Virus record (IMG/VR): IMGVR_UViG_3300011268_000517
Coordinates: 1 to 22,557 of that record
Reading direction: 5' to 3' (one strand)
DNA: 22,557 nt
Source of the DNA: a virus
Positions 2,823 through 18,544 of the stretch are shown piece by piece. The notes below the pieces were generated by a model, which saw only the letters and a program-made list of their open reading frames with translations, was not told where the DNA came from and did no database searches. Within the stretch, counting starts at the first letter, position 1. Each line of letters begins with the position of its first letter. A program made the translations under genes and the position numbers.

Positions 2823-5800
2823 TTATTCCTTAATTTTTGCTTTTAGTAGTTCCACTTCAGCAGTTAGTTCTTGAACAGCTTTAATTAGAACAGAAACCAT
2901 CTGCCCGTAGTTAACAGTCTTCATGCCGTTTTCTTGTTCTCCAACAAACTCAGGCAAGACCTTTTCAACTTCTTGAGCAATTAAACCAACTTCTTGTTTA
3001 TTGTCTTTAATATATGTAACAGAACGAAGAGCTAATACAGTATCTAGTCCGTATTGTGAATCAACTACATTAGTTTTAATTCTAATATCAGAAGAAACCT
3101 GGAATGCAGAAGCAGTAATAGTACCTGCAGAGAAGTTACCAGAACCATCACGAGCGACAACCATATTCGCTGTATTTGCGGAAGTGGCATTCGCCGCATT
3201 GAATGCAGTATATCCTAATGCGCCATTGACGTCACCAGATGTCAAAGTAACAACGTTAGTTCTTCCGTTGAAAGAAGTAACCATCGCATTACCAAGATAG
3301 TTCCAGAATACATCAGTTCCGTTTGTAGTTAGAACATATCCGTTTTGTGGAGCAGACTGTGGTGGTAGCAAGTTAGTTCTTGCTGCTTGCGCAGTAGTTG
3401 CACCAGTACCACCTGATCCGATACCCAGCGCATTAGTCAAACTCAAAGAAGACAGAGTGGTAGAACCAGCAGATAAGCTGCTAGACAGAGTTACTGCACC
3501 AGATACGTTTAAAGTACTAGAAAGTGTAGTAGCACCAGTAACACCTAATGTGCTAGAGAAAGAACCAGTTGTTGCTGAAAGCGCAGCAAGAGTTGTTGAA
3601 CCAGATACGTTTAGAGTGCTGCTTAGAGTAGTCGCACCAGTAACACCAAGAGTACCACCAACAGTAGTATTAGAAGAAACTGCAAGAGTAGAGCTTAGAG
3701 TAGTCGCACCAGTAACACCAAGAGTACCACCAACAGATGCGTTGCTAGAAACTGTAGCAGTTCCAGTTACGCTTAGTGGTTTGTTCATTTCCCAACGATC
3801 GTTTGCGGATGCGTAAGTCAATGTAGCGTTGGCACCATTAACAGTCAAACCAGCACCGTTTGCTGCAGCGGCAGTAGCAGCACCATCAGCAAGAACGATG
3901 TTTAGGTCATCAACAGAAAGAGTTGTTGAGTTAATTGTAGTTGTTGTTCCGTTAACAGTCAAGTTACCAGACACAATCAAGTTATTATTAACAGTTGTGT
4001 TACCAGTTCCTGCACCGATAGAAACAGTAGTCGCTGCGCCACCCATGTTTAGGGTAGTAGCAGTAGTATTTGCTAGGTTAAATGTAGCAGTAGAAACTGT
4101 TAGGTCGCCACCATCAATATTAACATCACCATCAACGTCTAAGTTATTACGAACGTTTGTAGTTCCAGAAGTTGCGCCAAGAACAATACTAGTAGCTGCA
4201 CCAAATGCGTTAACAGTAGTAGCAGTACTGTTCCACAGGTTTTGAGTAGCGTTAGAACCAACAACAGTTCCTGGACGTAATGTCAAAGTAGCAGTTGTTG
4301 CGTTACCGATATTTAAAGTAGTAGCTGCGCCGAAAGCGTTGACAGTAGTAGCAACAGTATCATATACGTTCTGTGTACTATTAGAACCGACGATAGTTCC
4401 TGGTCGTGCCAATAGAGTTGCGCTAGTAGCGTTACCCAAGTTAATTGTAGTTGCTGCTCCACCAATGTTTAGAGTTGTAGCAATTGTATTGTATAAGTTT
4501 TGAGTAGCATCGCTACCAACCAAAGTGCCAGAGCGTAGAGTAGTAGTACCACCAGAAGCGCCCATAGCGATAGTGCTTGCAGAACCCAACAAGTTTGCAG
4601 TAGTTGCAGTAGTATTGAATACTGTTACGTTAGTCTGGTTAGTTAAGATGTCTCCACCGTTAACAGAAATGTCACCGAAGATAGAGAATGTACCATCACA
4701 GACGATGTTCTTAACAACACTTATACCGCCAGCGAATCGAACAGATCCGTTAGCAGATGTAGTTGCATCGGTTGAGTTAGTGAATGTAACGATACCGTTA
4801 TCGAAAGTTACGTTAGGGTTACCAATCGTTAACAAACCACCAGCAGTAGAACCGATATTTACGTTGGTTGTAGAACCAGCCAAACCACCAGTAGCTAAGT
4901 TTACTGTCTTGGTTGTTGCTGTAGCAGTAGCGCCAACGCCTACGTTGATAGTTTGTGCTGATGTTACGTTGGCGCCAATGTTTAAAGTTCCAGCAGCACC
5001 GAATGCGTTAACAGTAGTAGCTACAGTATTAAACACAGACTGTGTTGTATTTGCACCAACAACAATCGGATTATTCAGTGTTAATACACCAGTAGATGCA
5101 CCCAAAGATACAGCAGTAGCAGATCCACCAACTGTGATTGATGTTTGAGAAGAATCGTTCAGAACAGAGTTGGAAGTCAATACTGGGATAGCGTTGATTT
5201 CGTAAGTCTTGCCTGTCGCCAAACTGAAGTCTTCAGAAGAAGTCCAAGCGCCAGTAGCGTTGATCCAGTTAATTGTTTTATCAGTACTACCTTTTAGGGT
5301 AATACCACCGCCGTCAGCTGTTGTGTTGGTTGGTGATGCAACTGAGCCCAACTCAATATTCTTGTCGTCTACTGTGACGGTAACTGCATTGATTGTTTGA
5401 GTTGTACCGTTGACAGTGAAAGTTCCGCTAACAACCAAGTCGTTACGAACCGTAGTAGTACCAGTAGCAGCACCGATAGAAACAGTAGTAGCTGCGTTAC
5501 CGATATTTAATGTAGTAGCATTGGTATTGAATAGGGTAGCAGTTGTTGCAGTAGTAGTTACGTCACCGCCGTTAACTGCGATATCGCCAGTTAATGTTGC
5601 ATTGTTAGATGCAAAATCTCCACTAGCATCACGAGCCATAATAGTGCTGGCTGTGTTATTTGGTGTAGAGTTTAAAGATAGTAGTGGGTTGCCAGAGATA
5701 CCATCACCGTTAGTGACAGTAATACCCTGTCCAGAAACCGTAATTGCACGGCTAGTGAATGTTCCCTTAGACTGACGAACCACCAAACCAGCAACAGTGT

Positions 5801-6308
5801 TTTGAGCAATACCACGTGTTTCTACACCAAGCCATTTTTCAAATGTGATAGCGTGTAGATCTAGAGTTGTAGGTTGTGAAGTTAACTTCCAAACAGTTTC
5901 GTTATGTGTAGAACCTTCTGCTACATAAACAAACATTCCTTTTTGAATGTTATAAATTTTGTCGAAGTCATAAGAACGAACCCAAGTTCCTGGAAGATCG
6001 ACTACAGTATAGATACCGTTTTTAGACTGATCAGTCTGCCCTGCGACTAAGACACGATCACCAACAGACAGAGAAACGCCATCAACAGTTTGCACACCCG
6101 AAAGTGTAATGTTAGAAGTAGAGATAACTCTGACAGGCAAACTCTTATACTGGCTATTACCCATAACGATTTCACTACCGCCTGGAGTAGTGCCATCGTG
6201 TAGGCGCATTACTTTATGTGATGTATCAAAAGTCGGCTCAGCGTTAGCGCCAGTAAATGTCTTGTGTTGGTCGTATGTACCACGTCTTAATTGAATTTGT
6301 GTTGGCAT
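2823..6308 (-). CDS. Long tail/neck fibre with an Mtd_N-like N-terminus and a C-terminal intramolecular chaperone (peptidase S74)
   Basis: N-terminal QIQLRRGT...HDGTTPGG; Thr/Gly/Ala-rich beta repeats; SSDIRIKTNV autocleavage motif, GLIAQEVE, and VNYGQMV..LIKAVQEL coiled coil. Confidence 0.88.
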   Translation of the reverse strand: MPTQIQLRRGTYDQHKTFTGANAEPTFDTSHKVMRLHDGTTPGGSEIVMGNSQYKSLPVRVISTSNITLSGVQTVDGVSLSVGDRVLVAGQTDQSKNGIYTVVDLPGTWVRSYDFDKIYNIQKGMFVYVAEGSTHNETVWKLTSQPTTLDLHAITFEKWLGVETRGIAQNTVAGLVVRQSKGTFTSRAITVSGQGITVTNGDGISGNPLLSLNSTPNNTASTIMARDASGDFASNNATLTGDIAVNGGDVTTTATTATLFNTNATTLNIGNAATTVSIGAATGTTTVRNDLVVSGTFTVNGTTQTINAVTVTVDDKNIELGSVASPTNTTADGGGITLKGSTDKTINWINATGAWTSSEDFSLATGKTYEINAIPVLTSNSVLNDSSQTSITVGGSATAVSLGASTGVLTLNNPIVVGANTTQSVFNTVATTVNAFGAAGTLNIGANVTSAQTINVGVGATATATTKTVNLATGGLAGSTTNVNIGSTAGGLLTIGNPNVTFDNGIVTFTNSTDATTSANGSVRFAGGISVVKNIVCDGTFSIFGDISVNGGDILTNQTNVTVFNTTATTANLLGSASTIAMGASGGTTTLRSGTLVGSDATQNLYNTIATTLNIGGAATTINLGNATSATLLARPGTIVGSNSTQNVYDTVATTVNAFGAATTLNIGNATTATLTLRPGTVVGSNATQNLWNSTATTVNAFGAATSIVLGATSGTTNVRNNLDVDGDVNIDGGDLTVSTATFNLANTTATTLNMGGAATTVSIGAGTGNTTVNNNLIVSGNLTVNGTTTTINSTTLSVDDLNIVLADGAATAAAANGAGLTVNGANATLTYASANDRWEMNKPLSVTGTATVSSNASVGGTLGVTGATTLSSTLAVSSNTTVGGTLGVTGATTLSSTLNVSGSTTLAALSATTGSFSSTLGVTGATTLSSTLNVSGAVTLSSSLSAGSTTLSSLSLTNALGIGSGGTGATTAQAARTNLLPPQSAPQNGYVLTTNGTDVFWNYLGNAMVTSFNGRTNVVTLTSGDVNGALGYTAFNAANATSANTANMVVARDGSGNFSAGTITASAFQVSSDIRIKTNVVDSQYGLDTVLALRSVTYIKDNKQEVGLIAQEVEKVLPEFVGEQENGMKTVNYGQMVSVLIKAVQELTAEVELLKAKIKE
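3621..3736. repeat. Two identical 44-nt direct repeats (period 72 nt) inside the fibre gene
   Basis: gcttagagtagtcgcaccagtaacaccaagagtaccaccaacag at 3621-3664 and 3693-3736, encoding VGGTLGVTGATTLS. Confidence 0.9.
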
Positions 6309-6317
6309 TTCTTATCC

Positions 6318-6848
6318 TTAAGCGAGTGCTCCAAAATCTACAGTATTAAACACCCCAACAGGTTCCATATTATCATATGTGATAATCGCAACGATAGGGA
6401 CACCGAACGCATCATATGCGGCAGCGGAAACGATATCACCATAATCTCCTTTTGGATACCCAGAAGCTGATGCAGTGCCGTCGGCGTATGCTTTGTTAAC
6501 AGCGTCTGTATTTCCAATCGGTGCTGATAAGGCAGTGATTAAATTGCCATTCATAGAAAGCGGAACATCAAATGTGATCTGTCCGCCACCGAATCTAGCG
6601 ATGACAGTTCCGCCTACTTGAATCTGAAGAATGGTATTGTTTTGAGCGTCAGTAGTATAGGTTACTGCGCTGTTTGTTGATGGTTGTGTGAAACCACGTG
6701 AAGCGAATGCTTCGATTTCGTTGTTGCTGTTTTTAAAATAAAGAAATCCATCAGCGTAGTTGAGTGCAACTTCGCCGTATTCTAAGTCAGTGACAAGAGG
6801 CTTCTTTGTCGTTACTGACGATTTTTTAAGGATAATCTTATTTGACAT
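6318..6848 (-). CDS. Short fibre connector/adaptor protein
   Basis: N-terminal KIILKKS...LEYGEVALNYADG.LYFK resembles the L..GE.A.N..D module at the start of T4-like fibre segments. It also has an ITALSAP...DAVNKAY fibre motif. Confidence 0.65.
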   Translation of the reverse strand: MSNKIILKKSSVTTKKPLVTDLEYGEVALNYADGFLYFKNSNNEIEAFASRGFTQPSTNSAVTYTTDAQNNTILQIQVGGTVIARFGGGQITFDVPLSMNGNLITALSAPIGNTDAVNKAYADGTASASGYPKGDYGDIVSAAAYDAFGVPIVAIITYDNMEPVGVFNTVDFGALA

Positions 6849-6879
6849 TATTTCTTTATTCTAAAAAGAACAACAACTG

Positions 6880-6917
6880 AGTAGTAAGAACTACTGGGTG
6901 GGAATTTCACCCACCCA
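6880..6917 (-). promoter_or_regulatory. Two adjacent hairpins in the intergenic leader (possible terminator or structured RNA)
   Basis: 8-bp stem tgggtggg (6895-6902) / cccaccca (6910-6917), and 6-bp stem agtagt (6880-6885) / actact (6890-6895). A T-rich tract follows on the minus strand. Confidence 0.55.
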
Positions 6918-6925
6918 TTATCAAT

Positions 6926-6933
6926 TATTTAGT
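6926..6933 (-). promoter_or_regulatory. Candidate T4-type late promoter ACTAAATA
   Basis: tatttagt on the + strand, intergenic, upstream of 6318..6848. Confidence 0.65.
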
Positions 6934-6938
6934 AACAA

Positions 6939-9320
6939 TTAATAAGTTCCGCCATCGATAGTAAATCCATCAATAGTAGAGGTAGAAGCACCAGCGCCAG
7001 TTAAGTTAGCTGACAATGTTACGTTTCCAGTAACACCTAGAGTAGAAGATAAAGTAGTCGCACCAGATACTGCTAGGGTAGATGTTAAAGTTGTCGCACC
7101 GTTAGCTGCAAGAGTTGTGAACGCACCAGTAGAACGAGTAGTCGCACCAATTGGTGTGTTGTTAACTGTACCACCACTAATAGTTAAGTTGTCGGCGATA
7201 TAAGCATCAGCAATAACAGAACCATTCCAAGTACCAGTAGTGATAGTACCCAGAGTAGTAATAGATGTCTGACCTACGTATGTAGAAGCGATATCGATGC
7301 TATCGGCATTAACTGTGATTCGGTTTGCAGTCCCAACGATATTCAAGACACCAGAAGTGAATGTCAAACCTGCGCCAGCAACAGAAGAAGCTAGTTGAAC
7401 AGTATCATTTGCAATAGTTACACCGTTACCAACTTGAACTTCTAGAGTGTAACCGTTCTTGATAAGACCAGCGCCAGCGATTAGAGTACCAGAAGCAGAG
7501 AACAGAGTCCAGTTAATCGCATCAGTGCCGATAGTAACAACAGTATCAGAAACCACAACGAAACCAGTGTTATCGTTAACAGTACCTTGTTCAACGAATA
7601 CAAAAGTTCCTGGGTTTAGTTCTGCTGGAGCGTCAGCGTCAGTAGAACGAGTCCACGCACCAGCAGCAACGATATAAATACCGTTTTGAGAAGCGGTGCT
7701 TTGATCTTTAACAAGAACACGATCACCAACAGACAGAGTTACGCCATCAATAACCTGTGTGCCAGAAAGAGTAATGTTACCAGTTGTAGCAGCTTTAACA
7801 GAGTTCTTGATATCAAGACCAGAGCGAGCAGCGTCAACGTAGTACTTTGTAGCAGCATCAGAGTCAGCGGTTGGTTCTGCCAAGTTAGTGATCTTCTGAC
7901 CACTCATATTCACGGCAGAGCTAAATGTAGCAGCACCAGTTACTGCCAATGTTCCAGCGATAGAAGTGTTACCAGAACCTGCTGCGACTGTAAATTTGTT
8001 GCTATTAACAGAAAGGTTACCAGTCACATCTAATGTGCTGGATAGAGTAGCTGCTCCTGTTACACCAAGAGTTCCATCGATAGAAGTGTTACCAGTAGAA
8101 GCTGCAACATTAAACTTGTTAGTATTAACGCTCAAATCATTTGTTACTGATAGCGTACCAGCAAGAGTACTGTTTCCAGTAACACTTAATGTGCCGCCAA
8201 CGCTAGTGTTACCAGAAGTTGCAGCAACTGTAAATTTATTGGTATTAACCGCAAAGTCCCCAGCAACACCAAGTGTAGAACTTAGAGTAGCTGCTCCAGT
8301 TACACCCAATGTTCCGCCTAGAGTTGTATTTCCAGTAACACCAAGTGTAGAACTTAGAGTAGTCGCACCAGTAACACCTAGCGTACCACCAACAGCAGTA
8401 TTACCAGTTACACCAAGAGATGAAAGACCAGCAAGACCAGTAGTTGTAGAACCAAGGGCTAGAGTAGAAGAACCAAGAGTGATTGTCTTTGCAGAAACAG
8501 CACCAGCAGTTACAGTAAAGTTAGCTGTGTCAAAAGAAGCGACACCCTTGTTAGTAGTGCTTGCATCTTCTGCATAGATTGTTAGAGTATTTGCTGTAAT
8601 AGCAGTATCAATACCCTCGCCACCAACGATAGCCAAAGTCTCTGATAATAGAGAAATGCCGTCAGAACCAGTGTCGCCTGTTAGGTTTAATGTTGTAGCA
8701 ACAGAAACGGAACCTGCTGCAGACAAACGTCCCTTACTATCAACAGTGAATGTTGGGATAGAAGTAGCAGAACCGTAAGACCCAGCAGTTACGCCAGTAG
8801 TCTTAAGTGCTAATGAAGTAGTGCCAGCAGTATCATCGTAAGTAGCATCTATTTCAGAAGAATCAACGATACCGCCACCAGCAACGTCTTGAATAAATTC
8901 TGTAAGACTAGTAGTAGCATCAGTATAGATATTGGTAATAATTGTCTTACCAGTACCATTAGGAGTGATGTTAATATCACCATTGGTATTGGTTGAAGAA
9001 AGGGTGCTACCAGTTAATTGTAGGTTACCAACCAACCACTTATCAATGCTACCCGTAGCAGAAAGTACTGGAATAGACTTAGCAGTAGTGTTAAGTGTAC
9101 CACCTGAACCACCTGCGTCGACTAGACCAGTGTAGTATTTACCACCGATAATAACGTGATTGACTGCGTTACCAGCAGTCTCCGTGCCCATACCAATGTA
9201 TAAGCGATCTCCACCGTTAGCGCCGTTATCTGCTAACGCTGAATAAGCTAACTCACCTGCGCCCAGCGTTGCTGGGTTGCCAGATGTGCTAGAACGTTTA
9301 ATTCTAATAATAGAAGCCAT
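6939..9320 (-). CDS. Tail/neck fibre protein, repeat-rich
   Basis: N-terminal IIRIKRS...LGAGELAY; repeats of GGTLGVTG..TLSSTL and VNTNKF.VAA.SGNTS; ITNLAEP...DAATKYYVD motif; GDRVLVKDQ...NGIY domain; ends in IDGGTY. Confidence 0.85.
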   Translation of the reverse strand: MASIIRIKRSSTSGNPATLGAGELAYSALADNGANGGDRLYIGMGTETAGNAVNHVIIGGKYYTGLVDAGGSGGTLNTTAKSIPVLSATGSIDKWLVGNLQLTGSTLSSTNTNGDINITPNGTGKTIITNIYTDATTSLTEFIQDVAGGGIVDSSEIDATYDDTAGTTSLALKTTGVTAGSYGSATSIPTFTVDSKGRLSAAGSVSVATTLNLTGDTGSDGISLLSETLAIVGGEGIDTAITANTLTIYAEDASTTNKGVASFDTANFTVTAGAVSAKTITLGSSTLALGSTTTGLAGLSSLGVTGNTAVGGTLGVTGATTLSSTLGVTGNTTLGGTLGVTGAATLSSTLGVAGDFAVNTNKFTVAATSGNTSVGGTLSVTGNSTLAGTLSVTNDLSVNTNKFNVAASTGNTSIDGTLGVTGAATLSSTLDVTGNLSVNSNKFTVAAGSGNTSIAGTLAVTGAATFSSAVNMSGQKITNLAEPTADSDAATKYYVDAARSGLDIKNSVKAATTGNITLSGTQVIDGVTLSVGDRVLVKDQSTASQNGIYIVAAGAWTRSTDADAPAELNPGTFVFVEQGTVNDNTGFVVVSDTVVTIGTDAINWTLFSASGTLIAGAGLIKNGYTLEVQVGNGVTIANDTVQLASSVAGAGLTFTSGVLNIVGTANRITVNADSIDIASTYVGQTSITTLGTITTGTWNGSVIADAYIADNLTISGGTVNNTPIGATTRSTGAFTTLAANGATTLTSTLAVSGATTLSSTLGVTGNVTLSANLTGAGASTSTIDGFTIDGGTY

Positions 9321-9332
9321 CTATGTTCTCCG

Positions 9333-9584
9333 TTAAAATTCGCCGCCTTCCATGTTCTGCGCATCTAGCGTAGTCGTGGAAGTCCATCTATTTGTTACTG
9401 TTCTGTATACTAAAATCGACCCATCTATCTTACCATTAGTAGCTGTATCTACGTCTGCGACGCTATCAAGAGATTCAACTACAGCTGGATTGGACACGGT
9501 TGATGATGCAAGTGTAAGAACACCTTCGGATACTGCTACCTGAAGAGCTTCATCGGATTGTACAATAGCAATTGTATCAGACAT
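9333..9584 (-). CDS. Small fibre-associated adaptor protein
   Basis: L..V.DVD....DGSILVY....RW fibre-type motif; C-terminal EGGEF; in an operon with the fibre genes. Confidence 0.6.
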   Translation of the reverse strand: MSDTIAIVQSDEALQVAVSEGVLTLASSTVSNPAVVESLDSVADVDTATNGKIDGSILVYRTVTNRWTSTTTLDAQNMEGGEF

Positions 9585-9585
9585 T

Positions 9586-9921
9586 TTAAATTTGGGTAAT
9601 CTGAGGATTTACTGTTACGATACCTTCAACAACTCTGGTTTTAGAGCCAGAAGGTGATGTTATTTCTACATCATAAAGCCATCTTCCCGCAGGGATAACT
9701 TCGGATTGTTGTGGGGTTAGTTGTAGGCGCACCTTGCCCTGCTCTGCGCTGAACACCGTTGCAGTGAAGTTATAGGCGGTGCTGGACTGGTATGACTTTC
9801 TCATTTGAGAAGCCACACTATACCCTGTTAAATTTAAAGGTTGTCCGTTAGTTGCTGCAACTGATATAATATTGCTATAACTAGCACCAGCGTCCACGAA
9901 AAGATTACTAACAGTTGCCAT
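9586..9921 (-). CDS. Small virion structural protein (Ig/BppU-like fibre attachment domain)
   Basis: The likely start is the ATG at 9921 (MATVSNLFVD), with GGGGA upstream. The pattern NL.VD.GA, LNLTGY...SQMRKSY, GRWLYDVEI, RVVEGIVTV.PQIT is common in T4-like phage structural regions. Confidence 0.7.
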   Translation of the reverse strand: MATVSNLFVDAGASYSNIISVAATNGQPLNLTGYSVASQMRKSYQSSTAYNFTATVFSAEQGKVRLQLTPQQSEVIPAGRWLYDVEITSPSGSKTRVVEGIVTVNPQITQI

Positions 9922-9951
9922 CCAAGTCCCCAAAACTATTTTTATACTTCT

Positions 9952-9959
9952 TATTTATA
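9952..9959 (-). promoter_or_regulatory. T4-type late promoter TATAAATA
   Basis: Perfect consensus (tatttata on +), about 30 nt upstream of the ATG at 9921. Confidence 0.85.
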
Positions 9960-9989
9960 AAGGAAGGGATTTTGTGGGGATAGATGTTG

Positions 9990-9997
9990 TCTAAATA
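9990..9997 (+). promoter_or_regulatory. Candidate late promoter TCTAAATA
   Basis: TAAATA core, intergenic, upstream of the GGAG SD and ATG at 10042. Confidence 0.55.
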
Positions 9998-10041
9998 CTT
10001 GTAGCTGCGAAGCGATAATAATCACTTTTAATGGAGATAAT

Positions 10042-10692
10042 ATGGAAAATAACCAAGCACCACAAAACGAAACAATGTCAGTAGACGAACCTAATGTGGT
10101 CAAATTTTTTGAAAAACAGGCGTTCGCCACCCCAATTATTAGCTATATCAACCAAAAGCACGACGAGTTCAAACTAGAATTCATCAAGTTGGCTGATAAA
10201 ATGCAATCTTCTGGTTTCGATGGCGACATCCTTGAACTTGAAGATGAGCCAGCTGTAAAATTGTTAAAAGAAGCAATTTTTTCAGTTTGCGCAGAGTTGA
10301 AAGAATTTGGCTTTGATAACAGATACCCGTTTATTATGGGATCTAACGTTATCTACCAACAAAGAAACGAACACATTCCAGCGCACTCGTATGAGTTCGT
10401 TCCGCTCGTTCTAACATATATTGTCAATGAGCCTGAGCAAGTGACACCGACTACATATTATATCGACCCTCGTGGTGGTGTCCAAACACTTCGTGAAAAG
10501 GTTAGTCAAAACCTAGTCGGAACTTATTTTGGAATCAACGCCCATGAAGGCGAAATTATTGCAACTCCAGGTTACCTAACTCGATATACTGAGAGTAACC
10601 TAGATAGCCAAACATATCTTTCGATCAATGTTATGGTAGGTTACACCTCAGGGTCTGCAACAGCAACTTCTAAGAATGCCAATGCTGTTTAA
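10042..10692 (+). CDS. 2OG-Fe(II) oxygenase-like protein (TIGR02466-like) with degenerate metal ligands
   Basis: F.TPI near the N-terminus, NV......H.PAH, YIDPRG, EGEII..PGYL. The expected HxH/D reads HSY, and the distal His and Arg appear absent. Confidence 0.6.
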   Translation: MENNQAPQNETMSVDEPNVVKFFEKQAFATPIISYINQKHDEFKLEFIKLADKMQSSGFDGDILELEDEPAVKLLKEAIFSVCAELKEFGFDNRYPFIMGSNVIYQQRNEHIPAHSYEFVPLVLTYIVNEPEQVTPTTYYIDPRGGVQTLREKVSQNLVGTYFGINAHEGEIIATPGYLTRYTESNLDSQTYLSINVMVGYTSGSATATSKNANAV

Positions 10693-12119
10693 GCAGCAAC
10701 GACTGGAATTCCTACAGACTTTCGGACTTTCCAAGAACGCTTAGTTCCATTCGACTTAACAAAGTCGATATCAATTACGGGGACAGATGTGATGCCATCT
10801 CGGCGGATCTTCTGTCCCCTAATTTCTGTTAGGATTAGTCCATCAGTCATAAAGAATAAACTAGCGGCTAACATGGCGTTATTGTACCAGAACAAGTTCT
10901 CACAAGCCTGCTCCCAGTATTGATTCTCTAGGAACAAACACGCACCTTGGCACAGTTGAACAACTGGACAGTTAGGGCATTCTGGACGAGTAGACCAGTG
11001 ATAAGAAGTATGAAGACGGATATTATCAAAGTCTTCAATATTTCCAAGATTGTGCTTCGTTAAAGAAGAAGTGTTCTGACAAGTTGTGACGTTACCCTTC
11101 ATATCGATTGCAATATTATCGTCACGATCCATACCACACTTCTGACCGATAGTGTTTGCTGGGCGTCCTTGTGCAATACCCTCAAAGAAGCTCTTTAATT
11201 TAGTATGAATAGTCATACTAAAGTGATTTTCGCCTTTGATTGTTTCCCAGAATAAAGCGTGAAGAATTTCTTTCTGCTCGTCAGTAGTTCTTAAGGAGTG
11301 TTGCATTCCAGATTCATCGTAAGGGAGCATCAACTCTTCAGTAGTTACGTGAATTTGCCCTTGTTCTATCTCAGGCTTTAGCTTCTCCCAAATAAAGTCA
11401 CGAACTGCAACAAGAGAGACGTTCTCTCGAGTCAACACTGCATTAAACCCTACTCGATTTTGACCCATAACTTTTAAGGCTGTTACAATACCTTCACGCA
11501 TTTGAGGGTCGTCTAGTGGATCAGGACCACGGTTTTGCGCATGAAGAGGTCCATCGTGAGAAATTCCGATACTGAACGCCAAATCATTGAGCCACTTAAC
11601 CTTTTCTTTATCCAGTAAAGAACCATTAGTGACCATATTGAATGACGCATTTGGGAAGAAGTCACGAATTCTCTCTGCCAAAGGCTTCAGAGTTTTCCAA
11701 TACACCATTGGTTCGCCACCCCAAAATTCAATACGAACTTTATCGTATTTACTGATATTGAAGTTATTGCGAATCTTATTAACCAATTCTTCAGCATCTT
11801 CTGGACCACCGACTGGATCATGCGGTTGGTGTGCTTGGTTACAATAAGAGCAAGCAAAGTTGCACTTTAATCCCATCGTAATCTTCAAAATCTTAACAGA
11901 CTTTGTTTTTTTACCATGAGTTTCTGGTGAGGATGGGTTGGTAACTGGCGCTGGACGCCATACCTTGAGGTTTACATTATACTGTAAGTTAGGCGAAATA
12001 ACTGTTAAGTCTGGCTTATCGGAAGTCTCTTCCCAATACATCTCAGAAGTCATTGGGTCGTAGACCATGATCTGCTCAACATCATTCGAACCACGCATTA
12101 CTAATTGAAATGCTGACAT
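10689..12119 (-). CDS. Radical SAM enzyme with a C-terminal SPASM domain (anSME / peptide-maturase type)
   Basis: CNFACSYC (CxxxCxxC), FWGGEP, VTNGSLL, ISHDG; SPASM cysteines KCG...GNVTTC...CPNCPVVQLCQGAC...AC; AGGAG SD. Confidence 0.95.
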   Translation of the reverse strand: MSAFQLVMRGSNDVEQIMVYDPMTSEMYWEETSDKPDLTVISPNLQYNVNLKVWRPAPVTNPSSPETHGKKTKSVKILKITMGLKCNFACSYCNQAHQPHDPVGGPEDAEELVNKIRNNFNISKYDKVRIEFWGGEPMVYWKTLKPLAERIRDFFPNASFNMVTNGSLLDKEKVKWLNDLAFSIGISHDGPLHAQNRGPDPLDDPQMREGIVTALKVMGQNRVGFNAVLTRENVSLVAVRDFIWEKLKPEIEQGQIHVTTEELMLPYDESGMQHSLRTTDEQKEILHALFWETIKGENHFSMTIHTKLKSFFEGIAQGRPANTIGQKCGMDRDDNIAIDMKGNVTTCQNTSSLTKHNLGNIEDFDNIRLHTSYHWSTRPECPNCPVVQLCQGACLFLENQYWEQACENLFWYNNAMLAASLFFMTDGLILTEIRGQKIRRDGITSVPVIDIDFVKSNGTKRSWKVRKSVGIPVVAA

Positions 12120-12139
12120 AAAAAACTCCTATAATTTAA

Positions 12140-12147
12140 CATAAATA
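12140..12147 (+). promoter_or_regulatory. Candidate late promoter CATAAATA for 12177..13565
   Basis: NATAAATA, intergenic, about 30 nt upstream of the ATG at 12177. Confidence 0.65.
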
Positions 12148-12159
12148 AATTTTACCTAC

Positions 12160-12167
12160 TATTTATC
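12160..12167 (-). promoter_or_regulatory. Candidate late promoter GATAAATA for the radical SAM gene
   Basis: tatttatc on +, about 40 nt upstream of the ATG at 12119. Confidence 0.65.
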
Positions 12168-12176
12168 ACCATTTAA

Positions 12177-12962
12177 ATGACAACGTTTAACATTGACTAC
12201 TGCGAACATCCTTTGGATATGGATTTGCTATCGCCATACAAAAATTTATTGTATTGCAGATTAGCGTTACCAGAGGTTCCAAAGATAGACCAGCAAGCAT
12301 TAGAAAAATATGTACACGAAACCAACGAATTATTAGCGACGAATTTAATAGAACGACCGCTAGATCGTGGCGGCTCCGACCGTTTCGCAAAACAAGCAAA
12401 TGTCCATTATCCTTGGAAAACTGCTTGGGTTAGAAGCAGAATGTATGATGGTTGGTTTAATAAGTTTGACGAAAAATTTCCAGAACTAACTAACTATCTA
12501 TTAGAATTTCCAATAGACTCTTTAGAAGAAATTGCTGTTGCGCAGCTACTTGTTCAAAAAGAAAATGTTGAAGCATTCCCACACACTGATCCAGATCCTT
12601 ATTTTGGATTTAGGATATATTTAACTAACGAACCTGATCGAGCAAACTTATACTTCTATCCAAGCTATACTGACTTAGAGGAAAGACCTACAACGTTTGT
12701 TACATCTAATGGCGTAACGACCAAAAATGACTTAACAAAATTTTACAACTTTAATGACAAATTTATTGTTAAAAACAATAAAGGAAAATTTCCATTCATG
12801 CTTAACTCAGTCAGAGGATGTCATGGGGTTGAAAAAAACGCAAAACCAGAATGTGACAGAATAGTTCTTTCAGTATTCTTCAAAAAAATAAATTCTAGTA
12901 AATTGGCTGACTTGTTTAGCCGAAGCGTAGTTAAGTATAAAGATTCTTGTATTTGGAGATAA
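12177..12962 (+). CDS. Putative 2OG-Fe(II) oxygenase (double-stranded beta-helix fold)
   Basis: PHTD (HxD), distal GCHGV (H) and DRIVLSV (R) in the canonical order. Confidence 0.7.
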   Translation: MTTFNIDYCEHPLDMDLLSPYKNLLYCRLALPEVPKIDQQALEKYVHETNELLATNLIERPLDRGGSDRFAKQANVHYPWKTAWVRSRMYDGWFNKFDEKFPELTNYLLEFPIDSLEEIAVAQLLVQKENVEAFPHTDPDPYFGFRIYLTNEPDRANLYFYPSYTDLEERPTTFVTSNGVTTKNDLTKFYNFNDKFIVKNNKGKFPFMLNSVRGCHGVEKNAKPECDRIVLSVFFKKINSSKLADLFSRSVVKYKDSCIWR

Positions 12963-12965
12963 TAT

Positions 12966-13565
12966 ATGATAAAAGTTTTAACGAAAGAGCACGAGTCTCA
13001 AATTATTGATATTATTAATTCTCATGAAAAATCTGTAAAGACTGTTAAATCTGAGTATAGAAATCAAAAAATAATTTCACATACACTTAGATCTCTTGAT
13101 GCTGAAAACAATTATATTATTGGATGGTTTGACGGGGAAACCCTAATTTCATTTTTACATGCAAAGGTTATTTTAGGAATTCCATTCTGGCAATTAGCAT
13201 ACTGGACAACAAGAAATACTAATAGACACTTTTCTAAATCTGGTGTAATACAATTACTGGATAATTGCTGCGAAGTTATGGAAGACAATAAACTTTATAA
13301 TTTCTATCTAGCAAGACCTCTGAAATATGGGATAACAAAATACTTGGTTCAGGCTAAAATGACTAGTAGATATACTATGACTTACGATGAAATTGTTTTA
13401 GAGGGTAATAAATCTAATTATGCTTTGTTTAATTCTATATTCTTCGGAGATATGAAGTCACCATCAGATATGGTGATTATGTCTTTATGTTTAAAGCCAG
13501 AACATAGAAAATTTGACACTATGCCAGAATCGTATTATAAGTACGAAAATCCCTTGCCCAAATAA
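12966..13565 (+). CDS. Hypothetical protein, possible GNAT-like acyltransferase fold
   Basis: Layout IKVLT.E....I..II, YIIGWFDGETLISF, W.T....R....G...LL resembles GNAT topology. There is no clear acetyl-CoA motif, so the fold call is weak. Confidence 0.4.
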   Translation: MIKVLTKEHESQIIDIINSHEKSVKTVKSEYRNQKIISHTLRSLDAENNYIIGWFDGETLISFLHAKVILGIPFWQLAYWTTRNTNRHFSKSGVIQLLDNCCEVMEDNKLYNFYLARPLKYGITKYLVQAKMTSRYTMTYDEIVLEGNKSNYALFNSIFFGDMKSPSDMVIMSLCLKPEHRKFDTMPESYYKYENPLPK

Positions 13566-14293
13566 CCTTCAATATCAATTTCCCACCATCTCTCAGACAA
13601 TATAAGTTTACCTGGAGATGCATGGTGATTATTGTGCCACCCAAACCCCATACCAAATATACCAAGCCAAAAGTTATTGGTAGACTTATCTTCAGTTTGG
13701 TGATTTCTATAACCACTTCCATGGCAGAAGTAGTTAACTAATCCAAGCCTTATAAAATCTAAACAATATGCCAAACCATATAGAAATAGATACACTGGGT
13801 TAACCACTGCTAGGATAATACAAAAACTATAGATGATTGTATAATGGTATTTGTGAAAAAATGCTAAGAATGGATCTTTAGAGATGTTGATCGCTAATCT
13901 CTTAGCAAACCTTTCTCGCATATACTGTTTCTCATTACTCCCTTGAGGAAATGTCCAAGAATACATAGTATACAAAAACCCCTTATTTGGGTCGTGAGGG
14001 TCATTCTCAGTATCAGCACGTATATGATGGGTTTTGTGTTGAATCATCCAATAACTAATTGGACCAATACCACCAAGAGTTGCAAGAATTCCCAGTACCC
14101 ATTTAGTTGGCGTTGAACATCTAAACTGCCCGTGCGCAAAGTATCTATGGGCTGCTACTCCATTACCAATAACGCCAATAAGAAACCATATCACAAACAG
14201 AGCAAGCAAATTGGTGGGCGCAAAATATAAACCCACAAGAGCAAGAACGTGTAATGGTAAGAAAATTAGAAAAAAGTTTTTACCGAATTTCAT
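13535..14293 (-). CDS. Membrane fatty-acid desaturase (delta-9 / DesC-OLE1-like)
   Basis: His boxes HRYFAH, HKTHH...DPH and GWHNNHH; hydrophobic segments; WWEID. Confidence 0.93.
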   Translation of the reverse strand: MKFGKNFFLIFLPLHVLALVGLYFAPTNLLALFVIWFLIGVIGNGVAAHRYFAHGQFRCSTPTKWVLGILATLGGIGPISYWMIQHKTHHIRADTENDPHDPNKGFLYTMYSWTFPQGSNEKQYMRERFAKRLAINISKDPFLAFFHKYHYTIIYSFCIILAVVNPVYLFLYGLAYCLDFIRLGLVNYFCHGSGYRNHQTEDKSTNNFWLGIFGMGFGWHNNHHASPGKLILSERWWEIDIEGYLGKGFSYL

Positions 14294-15042
14294 TTTTTAA
14301 TCACTCTAATGACTAATGACGGAATATCCCACTCCCACCATTTTTCCCAATTATTCCAAGCATATGGTTTAGCATGGTGATTATTGTGCCAACCCTCGCC
14401 CATTGTTATTAAGTTGGCGATCCAACTATTTCTTGACTCATCATTAATTTTATGAGATTTATATCCGTGAATATGCGCTATAACAATAATTGCTGAACTT
14501 GAGTGCAAGCATAAAGAAGCTGGAATAGCATAAGCGAAAATAACTAACCATGGATTTATTAATGCTAAAATTATGCAATATGCAGCAATGATGTAAAAAT
14601 AATACTTGTGCATATTCTTTTGAAACTCATCTCTTCTCATATCACGGATCAGTTTCATTTCAATACCCTCATAATTCCAGAAACCAAACCAAGCACGCCA
14701 CCATCCTAATTGATACGGTGAATGTACATCATTGGGTTTTTCTGTGGCACGATGGTGGTGTCTGTGAACAGCTACCCACGCTAACGGAGAACCGACTGTT
14801 GTTATCACTCCAATAATGGAAAATAATTTTTCAAATAATGGATGTGTTTTAAAAGAACGGTGCGATAATAAACGATGGTATCCAATATTAATCCCAAGAA
14901 TACCAATAACCCAATAAGTTAGTAATGCAATCAACAGATAATCATATGCTGCAGTCGTAAACACAAATATAAGACCACCTAAAAATAATAAGTGGTTAAA
15001 GATCTGTAATCCTCTTACGGCGTGGTTGTGTGAAATTTGCAT
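14290..15042 (-). CDS. Membrane fatty-acid desaturase (delta-9 / DesC-OLE1-like)
   Basis: His boxes GYHRLLSHRSF, HRHHH...D.HSP and GEGWHNNHH; WWEWD; ATGA overlap with the next desaturase. Confidence 0.95.
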   Translation of the reverse strand: MQISHNHAVRGLQIFNHLLFLGGLIFVFTTAAYDYLLIALLTYWVIGILGINIGYHRLLSHRSFKTHPLFEKLFSIIGVITTVGSPLAWVAVHRHHHRATEKPNDVHSPYQLGWWRAWFGFWNYEGIEMKLIRDMRRDEFQKNMHKYYFYIIAAYCIILALINPWLVIFAYAIPASLCLHSSSAIIVIAHIHGYKSHKINDESRNSWIANLITMGEGWHNNHHAKPYAWNNWEKWWEWDIPSLVIRVIKK

Positions 15043-15050
15043 AATCTACC

Positions 15051-15893
15051 TTATTCTACGAATTCAATATATTTAGTTGGGATCACATCACCATCAACTA
15101 ACATGTCTAGTGGATGTTTCTTTCCAAAGAACTCATTTGGAATCCACTCATCATCTACAAAATCAAACCAAGGGCTAAACCCGAGGACAATATTGGTTCT
15201 CTCAATATCGCTGAGGTTATCTGCGAATACACGATGTGGTTTATTTGTATCCCAAGAGTAGCCATACCCGAGATCTAGATGTTCAGTTACCATAAATGGC
15301 GACTGAGGAAATGGTTTCATAAATTTAGTCTCAAGCTGGAACAGATAGTTTGAATCGCTTGTTACTGGGATATTAAATCTCAAATTCTCAAAAACAGGCT
15401 CATCTCGATGCCACATATACGAGAACGCAGTTGTTTCAACTCGCTTTGCGGGTATTGTTGATATACGAGATCTGATCATCGTTCTGTTACAAGAATCTAA
15501 GAACTCGCCCAATTTGCCTATCTTTGATGCGTCAGTTCTCTGGTTGAACCCATAAGAATCATAATAACTGTTAGCACCACCTTGTAGCTTGTCGAACTTT
15601 TGTTTATCGGCGTAGTACTGCTCTTGAACAGTTAGCTTCTCGGTGCCAAGTGTTGACTTGTGCTGGTCAACTGCAATGTTTGGATTATATGTTAGAGATA
15701 GAGACTTGTACGCATCAGACTCACCTTGTGAACTTCTGAACCCATAAGACCCATACTTGGTAAATGCTTCATCAACGTCAGCAGAGAAGTCTACAGAAAT
15801 CTTGAACTTATAAATGTGATTGGTTCTCGCTGGCTTGACTAGATTATTGTTCAAACGATAAGTGTCAGCAAGAGTGTTGAAAATTGTCTTCAT
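15051..15893 (-). CDS. Putative 2OG-Fe(II) oxygenase (Asp/Asn beta-hydroxylase-like fold)
   Basis: RSRIS, WHRD (HxD), RFNIPVTS, WDTNKPHRV (H) and RTNIVLG (R). Confidence 0.72.
   Translation of the reverse strand: MKTIFNTLADTYRLNNNLVKPARTNHIYKFKISVDFSADVDEAFTKYGSYGFRSSQGESDAYKSLSLTYNPNIAVDQHKSTLGTEKLTVQEQYYADKQKFDKLQGGANSYYDSYGFNQRTDASKIGKLGEFLDSCNRTMIRSRISTIPAKRVETTAFSYMWHRDEPVFENLRFNIPVTSDSNYLFQLETKFMKPFPQSPFMVTEHLDLGYGYSWDTNKPHRVFADNLSDIERTNIVLGFSPWFDFVDDEWIPNEFFGKKHPLDMLVDGDVIPTKYIEFVE
15070..15077 (-). promoter_or_regulatory. Candidate late promoter ACTAAATA for the desaturase pair
   Basis: tatttagt on +, about 28 nt upstream of the ATG at 15042, within the 3' end of the oxygenase gene. 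Confidence 0.55.
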
Positions 15894-15900
15894 AATGATT

Positions 15901-15931
15901 ATAGCCCTTAGTCTCCTAAGGGCTATTTATA
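15901..15931 (-). promoter_or_regulatory. Late promoter TATAAATA (15924-15931) overlapping an 11-bp perfect hairpin (15901-15926)
   Basis: The + strand reads atagcccttag-tctc-ctaagggctat. The minus strand reads TATAAATAGCCCTTAGGAGACTAAGGGCTATAATCATTATG. Confidence 0.85.
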
Positions 15932-15945
15932 ACAGAGTCTGTTTA

Positions 15946-16932
15946 TTACACTAGTGTTATATACAGTTCTGCATAAGAAGTCATGTCACCCAAGTTCAAC
16001 TTCAGTTTAGTGACCTCACCAGCCTCAAGACCAGAAAAATCTAATTGAATGTTAACTTCTGAACCATCTTTCAGTTCTAAACGAGATCTATTACAGAAGC
16101 CATTGGTCAAAACAACATCATATCTATTGATAGACTCTTTGTTGAAATGTTTAGAGCACTTAACTTTTACTGTATGAATTTGATCAGCTGCCAAAGAGGT
16201 TCTAAACGCATTGTTTTGGCGTCCATTAGTTTCATTGCAGTTTGAGTGTCCAAACTGGAAGTTTGGAAACCATTCTTCAATAGTAGCACCAGCAATTTCA
16301 AAGTTAATATGATTAAAGATATACTTAAGAATATATTGACGGTGTAGTTCTACATTCTCATATGGTTTACCTTCTAATGAAATATGAGGAACTTCCATAA
16401 TAGTCAATTCTTGTTCAGTATTAAGCACATTCATATTGTGCGTAGTTCTGAATGTAATAAATGCTTTGTCGAAGTCGAACTTGTCGTGACACTGAATACC
16501 AGCAATCAAGATCAAATCTTTGTTGTAGCGTTGTGCTACTGCTCGCAGAGGTCCAATTGTCTTAGCTTCTGGCATCTGTAAAATGTCAGCAAATCTGAAT
16601 TTTTCAGTAGCTACATCAAATTCAATCAGACCAAAAGTTAGCTCTTTTTCTGGGAAATCAGCGTTAGTGTAACTAACACTATCAACAACGATCAGTTCAA
16701 CAGGAACTGTTTCTGCTCGTAAGTCTTTCTCTTCTGATAGATCATTGTCTCTTTCTTTGCGTTTCGCTACCAAGTCCAGAGAATTAGATTGAAAATTATA
16801 CTTAACATCAAATACATAATTGTCATTGAAGTAAGATTCTCCAGAATCATCAGTTAATTGTCTAGCGCCATCCAATCCGTCTGCAACTGAGCCTACATAG
16901 CGGATATTTTCAAGTTTTGTTACAATTGTCAT
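15946..16932 (-). CDS. Hypothetical protein (328 aa), coupled to the Cys-rich gene; beta-rich C-terminal domain
   Basis: Long ORF with a GGAG SD, 15 nt after the Cys-rich gene. No catalytic motif recognised. Confidence 0.75.
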   Translation of the reverse strand: MTIVTKLENIRYVGSVADGLDGARQLTDDSGESYFNDNYVFDVKYNFQSNSLDLVAKRKERDNDLSEEKDLRAETVPVELIVVDSVSYTNADFPEKELTFGLIEFDVATEKFRFADILQMPEAKTIGPLRAVAQRYNKDLILIAGIQCHDKFDFDKAFITFRTTHNMNVLNTEQELTIMEVPHISLEGKPYENVELHRQYILKYIFNHINFEIAGATIEEWFPNFQFGHSNCNETNGRQNNAFRTSLAADQIHTVKVKCSKHFNKESINRYDVVLTNGFCNRSRLELKDGSEVNIQLDFSGLEAGEVTKLKLNLGDMTSYAELYITLV

Positions 16933-16947
16933 TTTATATTTCTCCGA

Positions 16948-17349
16948 TTATTTGCAAGTGCAGTCACAAGCGCAGTTACATGCGCAGTTACAGTTACATG
17001 CGCAGTTACAGTTACAGTTTGTGCGATACCATCTAAACAAAGCCATCGTTGGCGTTCCGTCTTGTGTATCTGGGCGAATACCATCTGTTGATGTTTGTGC
17101 ACCTTGACCAGTGTTACGGAAAATGTCAATACGGTAGTCTGTTGTTACCACGTTCAAAGCATTATCAGCAGCATCACAGTTACCGCAGTTACAGTTACAT
17201 GCGCTATTACATGCGTTACATGCGCAGTTCCATCCACAGTTACCGTTGCCTTCAGTAAATGTTCTGTTGTAATAACCTCCATAACCCCACAGCACACCGT
17301 TCAGGTCGGTGCCGCCAGAAATTCTAAATCCTGTTGCAGCGATTCCCAT
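16948..17349 (-). CDS. Cys/Asn-rich protein (19 Cys in two CxC ladders); candidate radical SAM substrate or fibre-tip protein
   Basis: GGAG SD; starts 1 nt after the fibre stop. Cys blocks are NCGWNCACNACNSACNCNCGNC (8 Cys) and NCNCNCACNCNCACNCACDCTCK (11 Cys). Confidence 0.85.
   Translation of the reverse strand: MGIAATGFRISGGTDLNGVLWGYGGYYNRTFTEGNGNCGWNCACNACNSACNCNCGNCDAADNALNVVTTDYRIDIFRNTGQGAQTSTDGIRPDTQDGTPTMALFRWYRTNCNCNCACNCNCACNCACDCTCK
16970..17017. repeat. Short tandem repeats (cagtta / gcgcagttacagttacat units) encoding the C-terminal Cys ladder
   Basis: gcgcagttacat, gcgcagttacagttacat and gcgcagttacagttacag in tandem. The 21 nt at 16983-17003 recur identically at 17184-17204. 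Confidence 0.85.
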
Positions 17350-17350
17350 T

Positions 17351-18544
17351 TTATTTCTCCAGTTTTTCTAGACGAGCATTTAGCTCGTTAATAGTATTTT
17401 GTTGTTCTTTGATAGCTTCGATGAGTAAACCGACAATGTTACCGTAAGCAACATTCTTAAACCCATCTTGACCTTCGCTAACTACTTGAGGAAGATGTTC
17501 TTCAACTTCCTGGGCAATAACGCCAATTTCAGCTTTACCATTCTTGATGTAAGAAACACCACGAAGGGAATTAACAACATCTACTGCATTATTTATTGTT
17601 TGAATTTCTTGCTTGAGTCTTGCATCTGAAGATGTATTGACTGTTGCGCCTGTGATATTACCAGAAGCAGTTAAGTTAACGAAAGAGTTGGTAGTGCCAG
17701 CAAATGTGTTGTTGCCAGCTAAAGAAGGAACGTCAGCACCGCAGTCGAGTGTTGGGTTTCCATCCGCACCAGTAGCGTTAGTTATTACGATTCTATTAGC
17801 GGTTCCAACGATACTTCTAACAACAGTTGTTGAATCACCATTCTTGGTGATAAACCCTCTGCTAGCTGCAGATAAGCCAGAAATAGAAGTAAGTTTAGAG
17901 TCAAATGGTTGAACGTCTGATCCAATAACTACACCTAAGGTAGAGCGAGCAGCCGCTGCGTCAGCATCGTCAATTAGAGAACGACCATATGCAGAAAGAG
18001 TAGTAGTTGTGGCAGTACCAGCACCAGTAAAGTATGGTAATGCATTCGCTGCAGATGTAACTGTCGCTAGGGCAGCTAGTTCGGCATCATACGCTTGAAC
18101 GTCTGTGCCGATAACCAAACCTAGAGTATTACGTGCACCTGCTGCAGTAGTCGCACCAGTACCACCAGAACCAATACCCAAGGAAGTGGTTAATGTGATA
18201 GAACCGCTAGTTATAGCAGCTACGCCAGAGAATGTGCCAGAAAACGATGCAGCAGTGATATTATTAGCTGCAAAATTACCAGAAGCATCACGACGAACAA
18301 TAGTGTTAACCGTATTAGCAGTATCCTGCGACCAGCCATCTAGTAAGTCAGCATCCAACCCAGAACCAGCACCGTCGACAGTTTTAATTTTGTTTAAAAC
18401 ATCGGCTGCAGTGTAGGCAGCTGCAGTTAAGCCTGTCTGTATTGCATTACTAATATTAGTAAAATTAGCATCAACTTCGGCGTTCGTTAATGGACTACCT
18501 TTGGTAGCTCTTAACGTAATTGAAGGTGCTGAAATGTTTGACAT
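17351..18544 (-). CDS. Tail fibre with a C-terminal intramolecular chaperone (peptidase S74)
   Basis: N-terminal LRATKGSPLTNAEVDANF; DGAGSGLDADLLDG; GGTGATTAAGAR..LGL; SSDARLKQEI...IGVIAQEVE...VAYGNIVGLLIEAIKE. Confidence 0.9.
   Translation of the reverse strand: MSNISAPSITLRATKGSPLTNAEVDANFTNISNAIQTGLTAAAYTAADVLNKIKTVDGAGSGLDADLLDGWSQDTANTVNTIVRRDASGNFAANNITAASFSGTFSGVAAITSGSITLTTSLGIGSGGTGATTAAGARNTLGLVIGTDVQAYDAELAALATVTSAANALPYFTGAGTATTTTLSAYGRSLIDDADAAAARSTLGVVIGSDVQPFDSKLTSISGLSAASRGFITKNGDSTTVVRSIVGTANRIVITNATGADGNPTLDCGADVPSLAGNNTFAGTTNSFVNLTASGNITGATVNTSSDARLKQEIQTINNAVDVVNSLRGVSYIKNGKAEIGVIAQEVEEHLPQVVSEGQDGFKNVAYGNIVGLLIEAIKEQQNTINELNARLEKLEK

Follow-up and report, generated by a model that had tools for sequence, protein, structure and literature searches.

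A large uncultured phage encodes a small predicted tail-fibre tip protein that ends in an alternating Asn/Cys repeat (the Cys ladder), together with a dedicated radical SAM enzyme that very probably modifies it. The window analysed here is the whole 22,557-nucleotide stretch of IMG/VR record IMGVR_UViG_3300011268_000517, and the genes of interest occupy positions 10042-18544. Our analysis separates them into two layers: a core consisting of an S74 fibre, the Cys-ladder protein, an Ig-like 328-aa partner and a 7-Cys SPASM radical SAM enzyme (rSAM), and an accessory block (12177-15893) of desaturase, acetyltransferase-like and oxygenase-like genes, which looks like a mobile add-on. To our knowledge no phage structural protein has been shown to be matured by radical SAM chemistry, and our literature searches found no description of such a step or of this core.

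Gene content of the predicted fibre-tip island

The initial annotation had described a biosynthetic-looking island between two groups of fibre genes, with a 19-Cys protein adjacent to an S74 fibre, a SPASM radical SAM enzyme, three 2OG-oxygenase-like genes, two desaturases and a possible GNAT. This description is confirmed. All ten ORFs exist, and the island lies among fibre genes between a VrlC-like (DUF4815) gene and the neck genes. The features are as follows.

17351-18544 (-), tail fibre with C-terminal S74 chaperone, probable carrier of the tip protein
16948-17349 (-), 133-aa predicted fibre-tip protein in the adhesin slot, with two Cys ladders, the second at the C-terminus; predicted substrate
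15946-16932 (-), 328-aa partner with a beta-rich N-domain and a C-terminal Ig/PapD-like domain; probable chaperone, adaptor or structural partner
15901-15931 (-), predicted T4-type late promoter TATAAATA (15924-15931) overlapping an 11-bp GNRA-capped hairpin, 38 nt before og3
15051-15893 (-), og3, AspH-like Fe/2OG hydroxylase
14290-15042 (-), des2, membrane di-iron (SCD/delta-9-like) desaturase
13535-14293 (-), des1, second membrane desaturase
12966-13565 (+), GNAT-fold acyltransferase-like protein
12177-12962 (+), og2, putative Fe/2OG oxygenase (motif only)
10689-12119 (-), radical SAM/SPASM predicted maturase
10042-10692 (+), og1, 2OG-oxygenase-fold protein without the distal His

The fibre matches PF13884 (E 1e-13) and PHROG tail fibres, and its N-terminal 9-136 region is 36% identical to a fibre fused directly to a ladder (L116; L numbers denote loci in our comparisons). 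The ATG of the Cys protein starts 1 nt after the stop of this fibre, a position equivalent to that of gp38 adhesins, but the Cys protein has no match to PF05268. It contains exactly 19 Cys, in blocks of 8 and 11. We rejected the possibility that the ladder is a DNA microsatellite or a shadow ORF, since differences to 7 homologues by codon position are 207/198/432 and 46 of 118 aligned conserved Cys codons differ synonymously.

The rSAM matches PF04055 (E 2.6e-11) and scores above the cut-off of the SPASM model TIGR04085 (36.9 vs 27). Its CxxxCxxC motif (C86/C90/C93) and seven SPASM Cys (328, 347, 381, 384, 390, 394 and 406; Cx2Cx5Cx3C and flanking Cys) are invariant in 69 homologues. The best fold match is CteB (5WGG, E 2e-15). 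The N-terminus of the rSAM is modelled as a three-stranded sheet without the helices of an RRE (three strands, three helices). A late-promoter-like ATAAATA lies 47 nt upstream.

The model of the 328-aa partner has a pLDDT of 75.7. Its residues 222-328 give an Ig-like match (Z 9.2, rmsd 2.6 over 97), and the full-length fold matches uncharacterised phage proteins, including an RP12 protein. No RRE appeared among its fold matches, although these effectively covered only the C-domain. The protein has no tblastn match in cultured phages, and an Atlas feature search returned nothing. Complex prediction with the Cys protein scored 0.01, giving no answer, and is not counted as evidence.

Both desaturases match PF00487 (E about 1e-16) with all His boxes invariant, and the des2 family profile hits 4YMK at E 3e-26. 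The GNAT fold rests on structure (TM 0.60-0.66 to PF00583 clusters). The three oxygenase-like genes differ in support. og3 has the HxD..H triad and the 2OG-binding Arg, with invariant H162, D164, H220 and R232, but its family match is weak (PF05118 in 3/22 members, best E 1e-4; Cpz10 structure 7V4F, E 0.007). og2 has invariant H136, D138, H216 and R228 but no Pfam or PDB hit, and a profile comparison of og2 with og3 was not significant (probability 3%). og1 matches phrog_81 (E 6.5e-12), but its family consensus has Arg/Tyr in place of the distal iron-binding His, and it may be non-catalytic. og1 is present in the close relatives whose loci extend that far and forms the fixed right border of the island in this lineage.

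The hairpin before og3 has a z of -5.2, and an equivalent hairpin is present in L033 (z -4.3). Counts of TATAAATA alone are not above chance (3 vs 1.6), and only their positions are suggestive. A sigma-70 scan was at chance level.

Linkage between the rSAM and the Cys ladder

To investigate whether the rSAM travels with Cys-rich ORFs and fibre genes, a check set in advance, we examined the neighbourhoods of its homologues. Among 67 dereplicated rSAM clusters, 63 have a co-oriented upstream ladder, compared with 1/62 downstream and 5/67 on the opposite strand. Conversely, 50/51 C-terminal NCNCNC ladders found by DNA motif alone have the rSAM nearby, compared with 1/28 other motif matches. The partner family lies between ladder and rSAM in 54/67 modules. 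The three genes are thus tightly and reciprocally linked to tail-fibre tips across myo-, sipho- and prophages. A few homologues, however, have no ladder or only a vestigial one (L161 and L170, next to type I secretion genes; L029; L166). The module is widespread, with over 500 viral and over 160 bacterial-genome matches to the rSAM, and the tail operons of the cultured phages RSP15 and JWF carry the module, so that it is open to experimental test.

The Cys protein looks like a split-off fibre head. Its N-terminal ATGF..GxD motif recurs about 130 residues from the C-terminal end of fused ladder fibres, and all but one of the non-family hits of the N-terminal profile among 18,932 ORFs are ladder-bearing fibres, although these hits are individually weak (E 0.004 to about 1). 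The ladder is terminal in 56/67 modules and followed by a long Hint-like domain in 11/67. The module is swapped between relatives with 83-90% identical flanks, in the position of the host recognition cluster (PMC7029224).

One alternative is that the ladder is a true RiPP precursor whose modified core is cut off and acts as a free peptide in exclusion or antagonism. Stand-alone ladder genes of 80-140 aa exist, sometimes three in tandem, and Hint domains offer self-processing. However, most ladders are fused to the C-terminus of fibres, no transporter, protease or peptidase gene was found in the modules, and the Hint domains lie after the ladder, so cleavage would leave it on the fibre. We consider this reading very unlikely. 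Even less likely is that all enzymes are unrelated auxiliary metabolic genes collected in a recombination hot spot. Host recognition clusters do collect such genes (PMC7029224), phage delta-9 desaturases are proven auxiliary metabolic genes (PMC5776448), and IscA/IscU-like genes occur elsewhere in the genome, but this reading cannot explain the two-way linkage with fixed order in unrelated phages. It remains plausible for the desaturases and GNAT only.

The accessory block and the optional oxygenases

2OG oxygenases lie inside about 45% of modules and are enriched there (52/161 genes vs 1/610 distal genes), so they are an optional part. Among the accessory genes og3 is the most tied to the module, and most og3-seeded lineages carry it. 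The block as a whole behaves differently. Most close relatives lack it, and close relatives carry a DctP-like and a PP-loop-like gene instead. We rejected the reading of all ten genes as one conserved operon. The desaturases, GNAT and og2 come from a large ladder-independent pool. Both desaturases nest among those of ladder-less phage islands, and none of the 80 closest viral desaturase loci has a ladder-rSAM module. Similar blocks follow gp38-type adhesins that have no rSAM or ladder, and the genome has three more desaturases 50 kb away. Broad desaturase and og2 alignments were too divergent to seed scans. The block is best read as a mobile cassette that recurs at fibre tips.

It is nevertheless possible, though unlikely, that the whole island is one pathway in which desaturases and oxygenases tailor an acyl chain, the GNAT transfers it to the fibre or tip, and the rSAM staples the ladder, giving a lipidated, cross-linked adhesin. 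og3, og2, the desaturases and GNAT lie between ladder and rSAM in this lineage and in unrelated small phages (L102, L116, L119, L129, L221), and all have predicted late-type promoters. Distant GNAT homologues also lie inside sipho-type modules. The desaturase label needs at least 6 changes on the rSAM tree, and desaturases account for 10/161 genes inside modules vs 0/610 distal. These counts are inflated by og3-seeded searches, and only about 2 of about 59 rSAM-seeded clusters have desaturases. As the block also follows gp38-type adhesins, it may act on tips in general. With equally low probability, it is tempting to speculate that the phage builds a multiply modified receptor-binding tip, thioether-stapled by the rSAM, hydroxylated by og3 and acylated with a phage-desaturated lipid by the GNAT, with the modification set swapped as a cassette to change host recognition.

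A proposed model of tip maturation and related systems

We then propose, with moderate confidence, a model for the maturation of the fibre tip. Late in infection, the phage would make an S74-folded fibre whose distal tip is the Cys-ladder protein. The rSAM, probably helped by the 328-aa partner, would modify the free C-terminal (X-C)n ladder. The likeliest chemistry is Cys-S-to-carbon thioether stapling onto Asn/Ala/Asp residues, giving a rigid tip, and optional Fe/2OG enzymes such as og3 may add hydroxyls. The desaturases, GNAT and og2 would form a mobile, late-expressed acyl/lipid-tailoring cassette that has repeatedly landed at fibre-tip loci and does not need the rSAM. Desaturase, GNAT, og2 and og3 nest inside the module in several separate rSAM clades, which is more than this model strictly needs. 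What the analysis demonstrates is the existence of the genes, the reading frame of the Cys protein, the two-way linkage of rSAM and ladder, and the absence of the accessory block from most close relatives. The position of the Cys protein at the tip is inferred from its gene slot and fused homologues, the enzyme-substrate pairing from the linkage, and the thioether chemistry from the fold and the 7-Cys SPASM domain. Presence in the virion, hydroxylation, late expression and delta-9 lipid desaturation are likewise only inferred, without biochemical or virion evidence.

The initial annotation had inferred, by analogy with the thioether-forming SPASM enzymes CteB, PapB, NxxcB and QhpD, that the phage matures its own structural or receptor-binding component with RiPP-type chemistry, rather than carrying these genes for metabolism. 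This interpretation is partly supported: it holds for the linkage of rSAM, ladder and partner to fibre tips and for the enrichment of 2OG oxygenases, whereas the assignment of the desaturases, GNAT and og2 to the same pathway is not supported. If the model holds, such phages cannot be understood or rebuilt from their fibre genes alone, many phage rSAM and oxygenase genes listed as auxiliary metabolic genes would instead be assembly enzymes, and the rSAM would be an enzyme that works processively on a dense (Asn-Cys)n repeat.

A different chemistry on the same substrate is a less likely possibility. The rSAM could epimerise alternating residues, oxidise Cys to formylglycine or thioaldehyde, or make C-C links, or the ladder thiols could stay free to bind metal. 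anSME and TigE are near-equal sequence matches. The X position tolerates N 269, A 91, D 48 and Q 17, which does not single out one acceptor carbon, and very short ladders exist (three Cys in RSP15). The seven SPASM Cys (open AuxI site) are shared by CteB, SuiB and TigE, which do different chemistry (PMC10878394), and are not diagnostic. On the other hand, the second Cys of the eight-Cys anSME SPASM domain is missing in the alignment to 4K37, the anSME score is far below cut-off (73.2 vs 349), no sulfatase was found among annotated neighbours, the GYW motif of the cyclopropyl synthases TigE/TvgB (PMC10878394) is absent, CteB is the best fold match, and Cys are the invariant ladder residues.

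The ranthipeptide synthases CteB (thermocellin) and PapB (freyrasin) likewise combine an rSAM with a 7-Cys SPASM domain and a nearby gene-encoded Cys-rich substrate, and make S-Cbeta/S-Cgamma links (PMC11002830). However, all named maturase models score our rSAM far below their NCBIfam cut-offs (PapB 79.9 vs 340; SCIFF 47.7 vs 425), the predicted substrate is a fibre-tip domain rather than a short leader-core precursor with exporter or protease, and its strict i/i+2 alternation is unlike the known PapB or SCIFF motifs. In quinohemoprotein amine dehydrogenase maturation (QhpD/QhpC), an rSAM cross-links a small protein subunit that joins a larger complex (PMC11002830), but that complex is an enzyme, the motif differs, and the TIGR03906 score is 65.6 vs a cut-off of 453. 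T-even gp38-type adhesins take the same slot behind an S74 fibre, and PF05268 adhesins occupy it in L219, but they have Gly-rich loops where the Cys protein has ladders and travels with an rSAM. The host recognition cluster of pelagi- and cyanomyophages (PMC7029224) is a variable island between VrlC and the neck genes with fibres and radical SAM cassettes, as here; that paper proposes no substrate, whereas a specific candidate enzyme-substrate pair is identifiable in our locus. Cyanophage delta-9 lipid desaturases (vFAD, PMC5776448) are also SCD-like membrane enzymes. The desaturases here are paired, have late-promoter-like motifs and lie beside GNAT and oxygenases at fibre loci, with only one distant cultured-phage match (27%). 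The HXS defence system (PMC13128918) has a repeat-bearing protein matured by rSAM enzymes in phage-host conflict, but it is bacterial and periplasmic, uses His-Xaa-Ser repeats and two rSAMs, and is not a virion part.

Genomic setting and gene content

The window is the first 22.5 kb of a 95-kb viral contig that is about 58% complete. It encodes T4-like neck and terminase genes and a VrlC-like DUF4815 gene, and the genes under study lie between the VrlC-like gene and the neck genes. This position corresponds to that described as the hypervariable host recognition cluster of aquatic myophages (PMC7029224). A second fibre group is located at 2823-9933, behind a TATAAATA at 9952-9959, and comprises a 1161-aa fibre with Mtd_N and S74 domains, a 793-aa fibre and three small conserved proteins.

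The initial annotation described fibre, cysteine-rich, SPASM radical SAM (rSAM), oxygenase, desaturase and possible GNAT genes, and all of these genes are indeed present. Their order is as follows:

S74 fibre, minus strand
Cys protein, minus strand; 133 aa with 19 Cys, starting 1 nt after the fibre stop
328-aa gene, minus strand
og3, minus strand; weakly AspH/Cpz10-like oxygenase
des2, minus strand; desaturase
des1, minus strand; desaturase
GNAT, plus strand; called on predicted structure only
og2, plus strand; putative oxygenase, recognised by motif only
rSAM, minus strand
og1, plus strand; oxygenase family match without the distal His

The rSAM contains the CxxxCxxC motif and seven SPASM cysteines, which are invariant in 69 homologues. 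It matches many peptide maturases, but far below their cut-offs, and its confident predicted model (pLDDT 94) is closest to CteB, followed by anSME and TigE. The two desaturases keep all His boxes and resemble acyl-CoA desaturases. Late-promoter-like motifs are found 36-47 nt before og3, the rSAM and og2. An 11-bp hairpin with a GNRA loop (15901-15926, minus strand) overlaps the late promoter of og3 and is kept in a diverged relative (locus L033, about 7104-7132); the hairpin might act as a terminator or transcript stabiliser.

The ladder–rSAM module and the position of the ladder

To examine whether the rSAM is linked to cysteine-ladder ORFs, we collected 197 loci with the full rSAM from viral contigs, bacterial genomes and cultured phages (these and the other loci compared carry L numbers hereafter) and reduced them to 76 clusters below 80% identity. 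Of the 67 clusters with at least 4 kb upstream, 63 have a co-oriented ladder ORF, while the downstream control gave 1/62 and the opposite-strand control 5/67. In the reverse test, a DNA-motif scan blind to the enzyme found 51 ORFs (45 distinct) with a C-terminal NCNCNC ladder and enough downstream sequence; 50 of them have a related rSAM, against 1 of 28 other motif matches. The core is thus a conserved module.

A partner family lies between the ladder and the rSAM in 54/67 clusters. The 328-aa protein belongs to this family and has a predicted C-terminal Ig/PapD-like domain, with fold matches to uncharacterised phage proteins including one from RP12. In Ralstonia phage RP12 itself, an unannotated 65-aa ORF ending in an NC ladder (L032:6861-7058) is followed by a 295-aa protein, several rSAM genes and a DUF3050-like gene, and L231 has a similar rSAM-DUF3050-IscA/U-desaturase cluster. 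A second, shorter radical SAM gene lies between the partner and the main rSAM in 5 of 67 modules (L047, L051, L058, L141 and L152).

The bacterial copies that we checked mostly lie among tail-tip, lysozyme and terminase genes, that is, in prophages, and the cultured phages RSP15 and JWF carry the module in their tail operons. However, non-phage homologues of the rSAM in Sulfuritalea and Sulfuricella (L161:3575-9335; L170:5726-17257) lie directly behind type I secretion genes. L170 has a large RTX-repeat protein downstream, and no ladder was found in the DNA examined at these loci.

The ladder is a fibre tip, as judged from its position. In 56/67 homologues it is the extreme C-terminus of a fibre. 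In the other 11 (L018, L025, L031, L053, L169 and others), a long Hint-like domain follows immediately, whose cleavage, we infer, would leave the ladder terminal; autoprocessing or ligation of the tip C-terminus is possible. The N-terminal motif of the Cys protein recurs about 130 residues from the end of fused ladder fibres. All but one of its non-family hits among 18,932 ORFs are such fibres, although each hit is weak. In addition, the N-terminus of the S74 fibre is homologous to that of a fibre fused directly to a ladder. Thus, this phage appears to have split the head into its own gene in the gp38 slot. A relative with 83-90% identical flanks has a different interior, as expected of a swapped host-recognition module. 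The relative L002 is mosaic when compared with window 8974-13951: its rSAM is 100% and og1 99% identical, GNAT 93%, des1 80%, og2 63% and the fibres 42-64%.

Proposed mechanism and related systems

The gene identities, the linkage, the terminal position of the ladder, the fold and the late-promoter-like motifs are shown by our analysis, whereas the activity of the module is inferred. It is very likely that the rSAM acts on the ladder, and likely that the ladder protein is in the virion. That the product is a thioether is more probable than not but less secure, since seven-Cys SPASM domains also serve SuiB and TigE (PMC10878394). The residue between ladder cysteines is Asn 269, Ala 91, Asp 48 and Gln 17 times, which is compatible with alpha- or beta-carbon linkage.

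In this view, the enzyme would work like QhpD or the ranthipeptide synthases (PMC11002830), but it falls outside these groups on score and on precursor logic. Literature searches, in a collection lacking most subscription papers, found no description of an rSAM-matured tail fibre. The nearest phage-related precedent found is the bacterial HXS effector (PMC13128918).

Oxygenases and the desaturase block

Genes of the 2OG type are an optional part of the module. They lie between the ladder and the rSAM in 33/67 clusters, and in 25/57 when og3-seeded loci are removed, and they make up 52/161 interior genes against 1/610 distal genes. Homologues of og3 sit in this slot in RSP15 and in most og3-seeded lineages, but they also occur without the module (L122-L128, L130-L132 and RsoM2USA).

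By contrast, the desaturases, GNAT and og2 form a mobile block. In most close relatives (rSAM 67-71% identical), the partner gene abuts the rSAM, and an alternative accessory set lies downstream of the rSAM (L004-L016), comprising a 104-aa protein, a DctP-like solute-binding protein (PF03480) and a PP-loop (SGGxDS) protein. The desaturases of the window belong to a pool of at least 587 viral matches, and none of the best 80 lies in a ladder-rSAM module. On a tree they nest among ladder-less copies, while module-located desaturases fall into several separate clades. In L219 (3086-7724) and L315, a gp38-type fibre-tip adhesin (PF05268 in L219) is followed by two small proteins, desaturases, og2 and a 230-aa protein without an assigned function, with no ladder or rSAM.

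The block is not random, however. A full og3-og2-desaturase-GNAT set nests inside the module in unrelated small phages, and the desaturase label needs at least six changes on the rSAM tree, although these loci were partly found by og3 and desaturase seeds, so that their frequency is overstated. The block is best described as fibre-tip-associated and rSAM-independent, with a presumed substrate that is probably acyl or lipid. In this window it is nested within the core, yet the two are separable by these tests.

Together, our results demonstrate that the feature is real and that its core is well supported by genomics. The initial annotation interpreted the whole island as one pathway maturing a structural or receptor-binding component by RiPP-type chemistry, and this single-pathway reading is only partly right.

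The same genome encodes further genes of note outside the window (contig G000:C1). Three more tandem desaturases lie at 71441-73846 (minus strand) with a TATAAATA 36 nt upstream, an og2 paralogue lies at 53104-53856, and IscA-like and IscU-like genes, recognised by eye, lie at 84506-85729.
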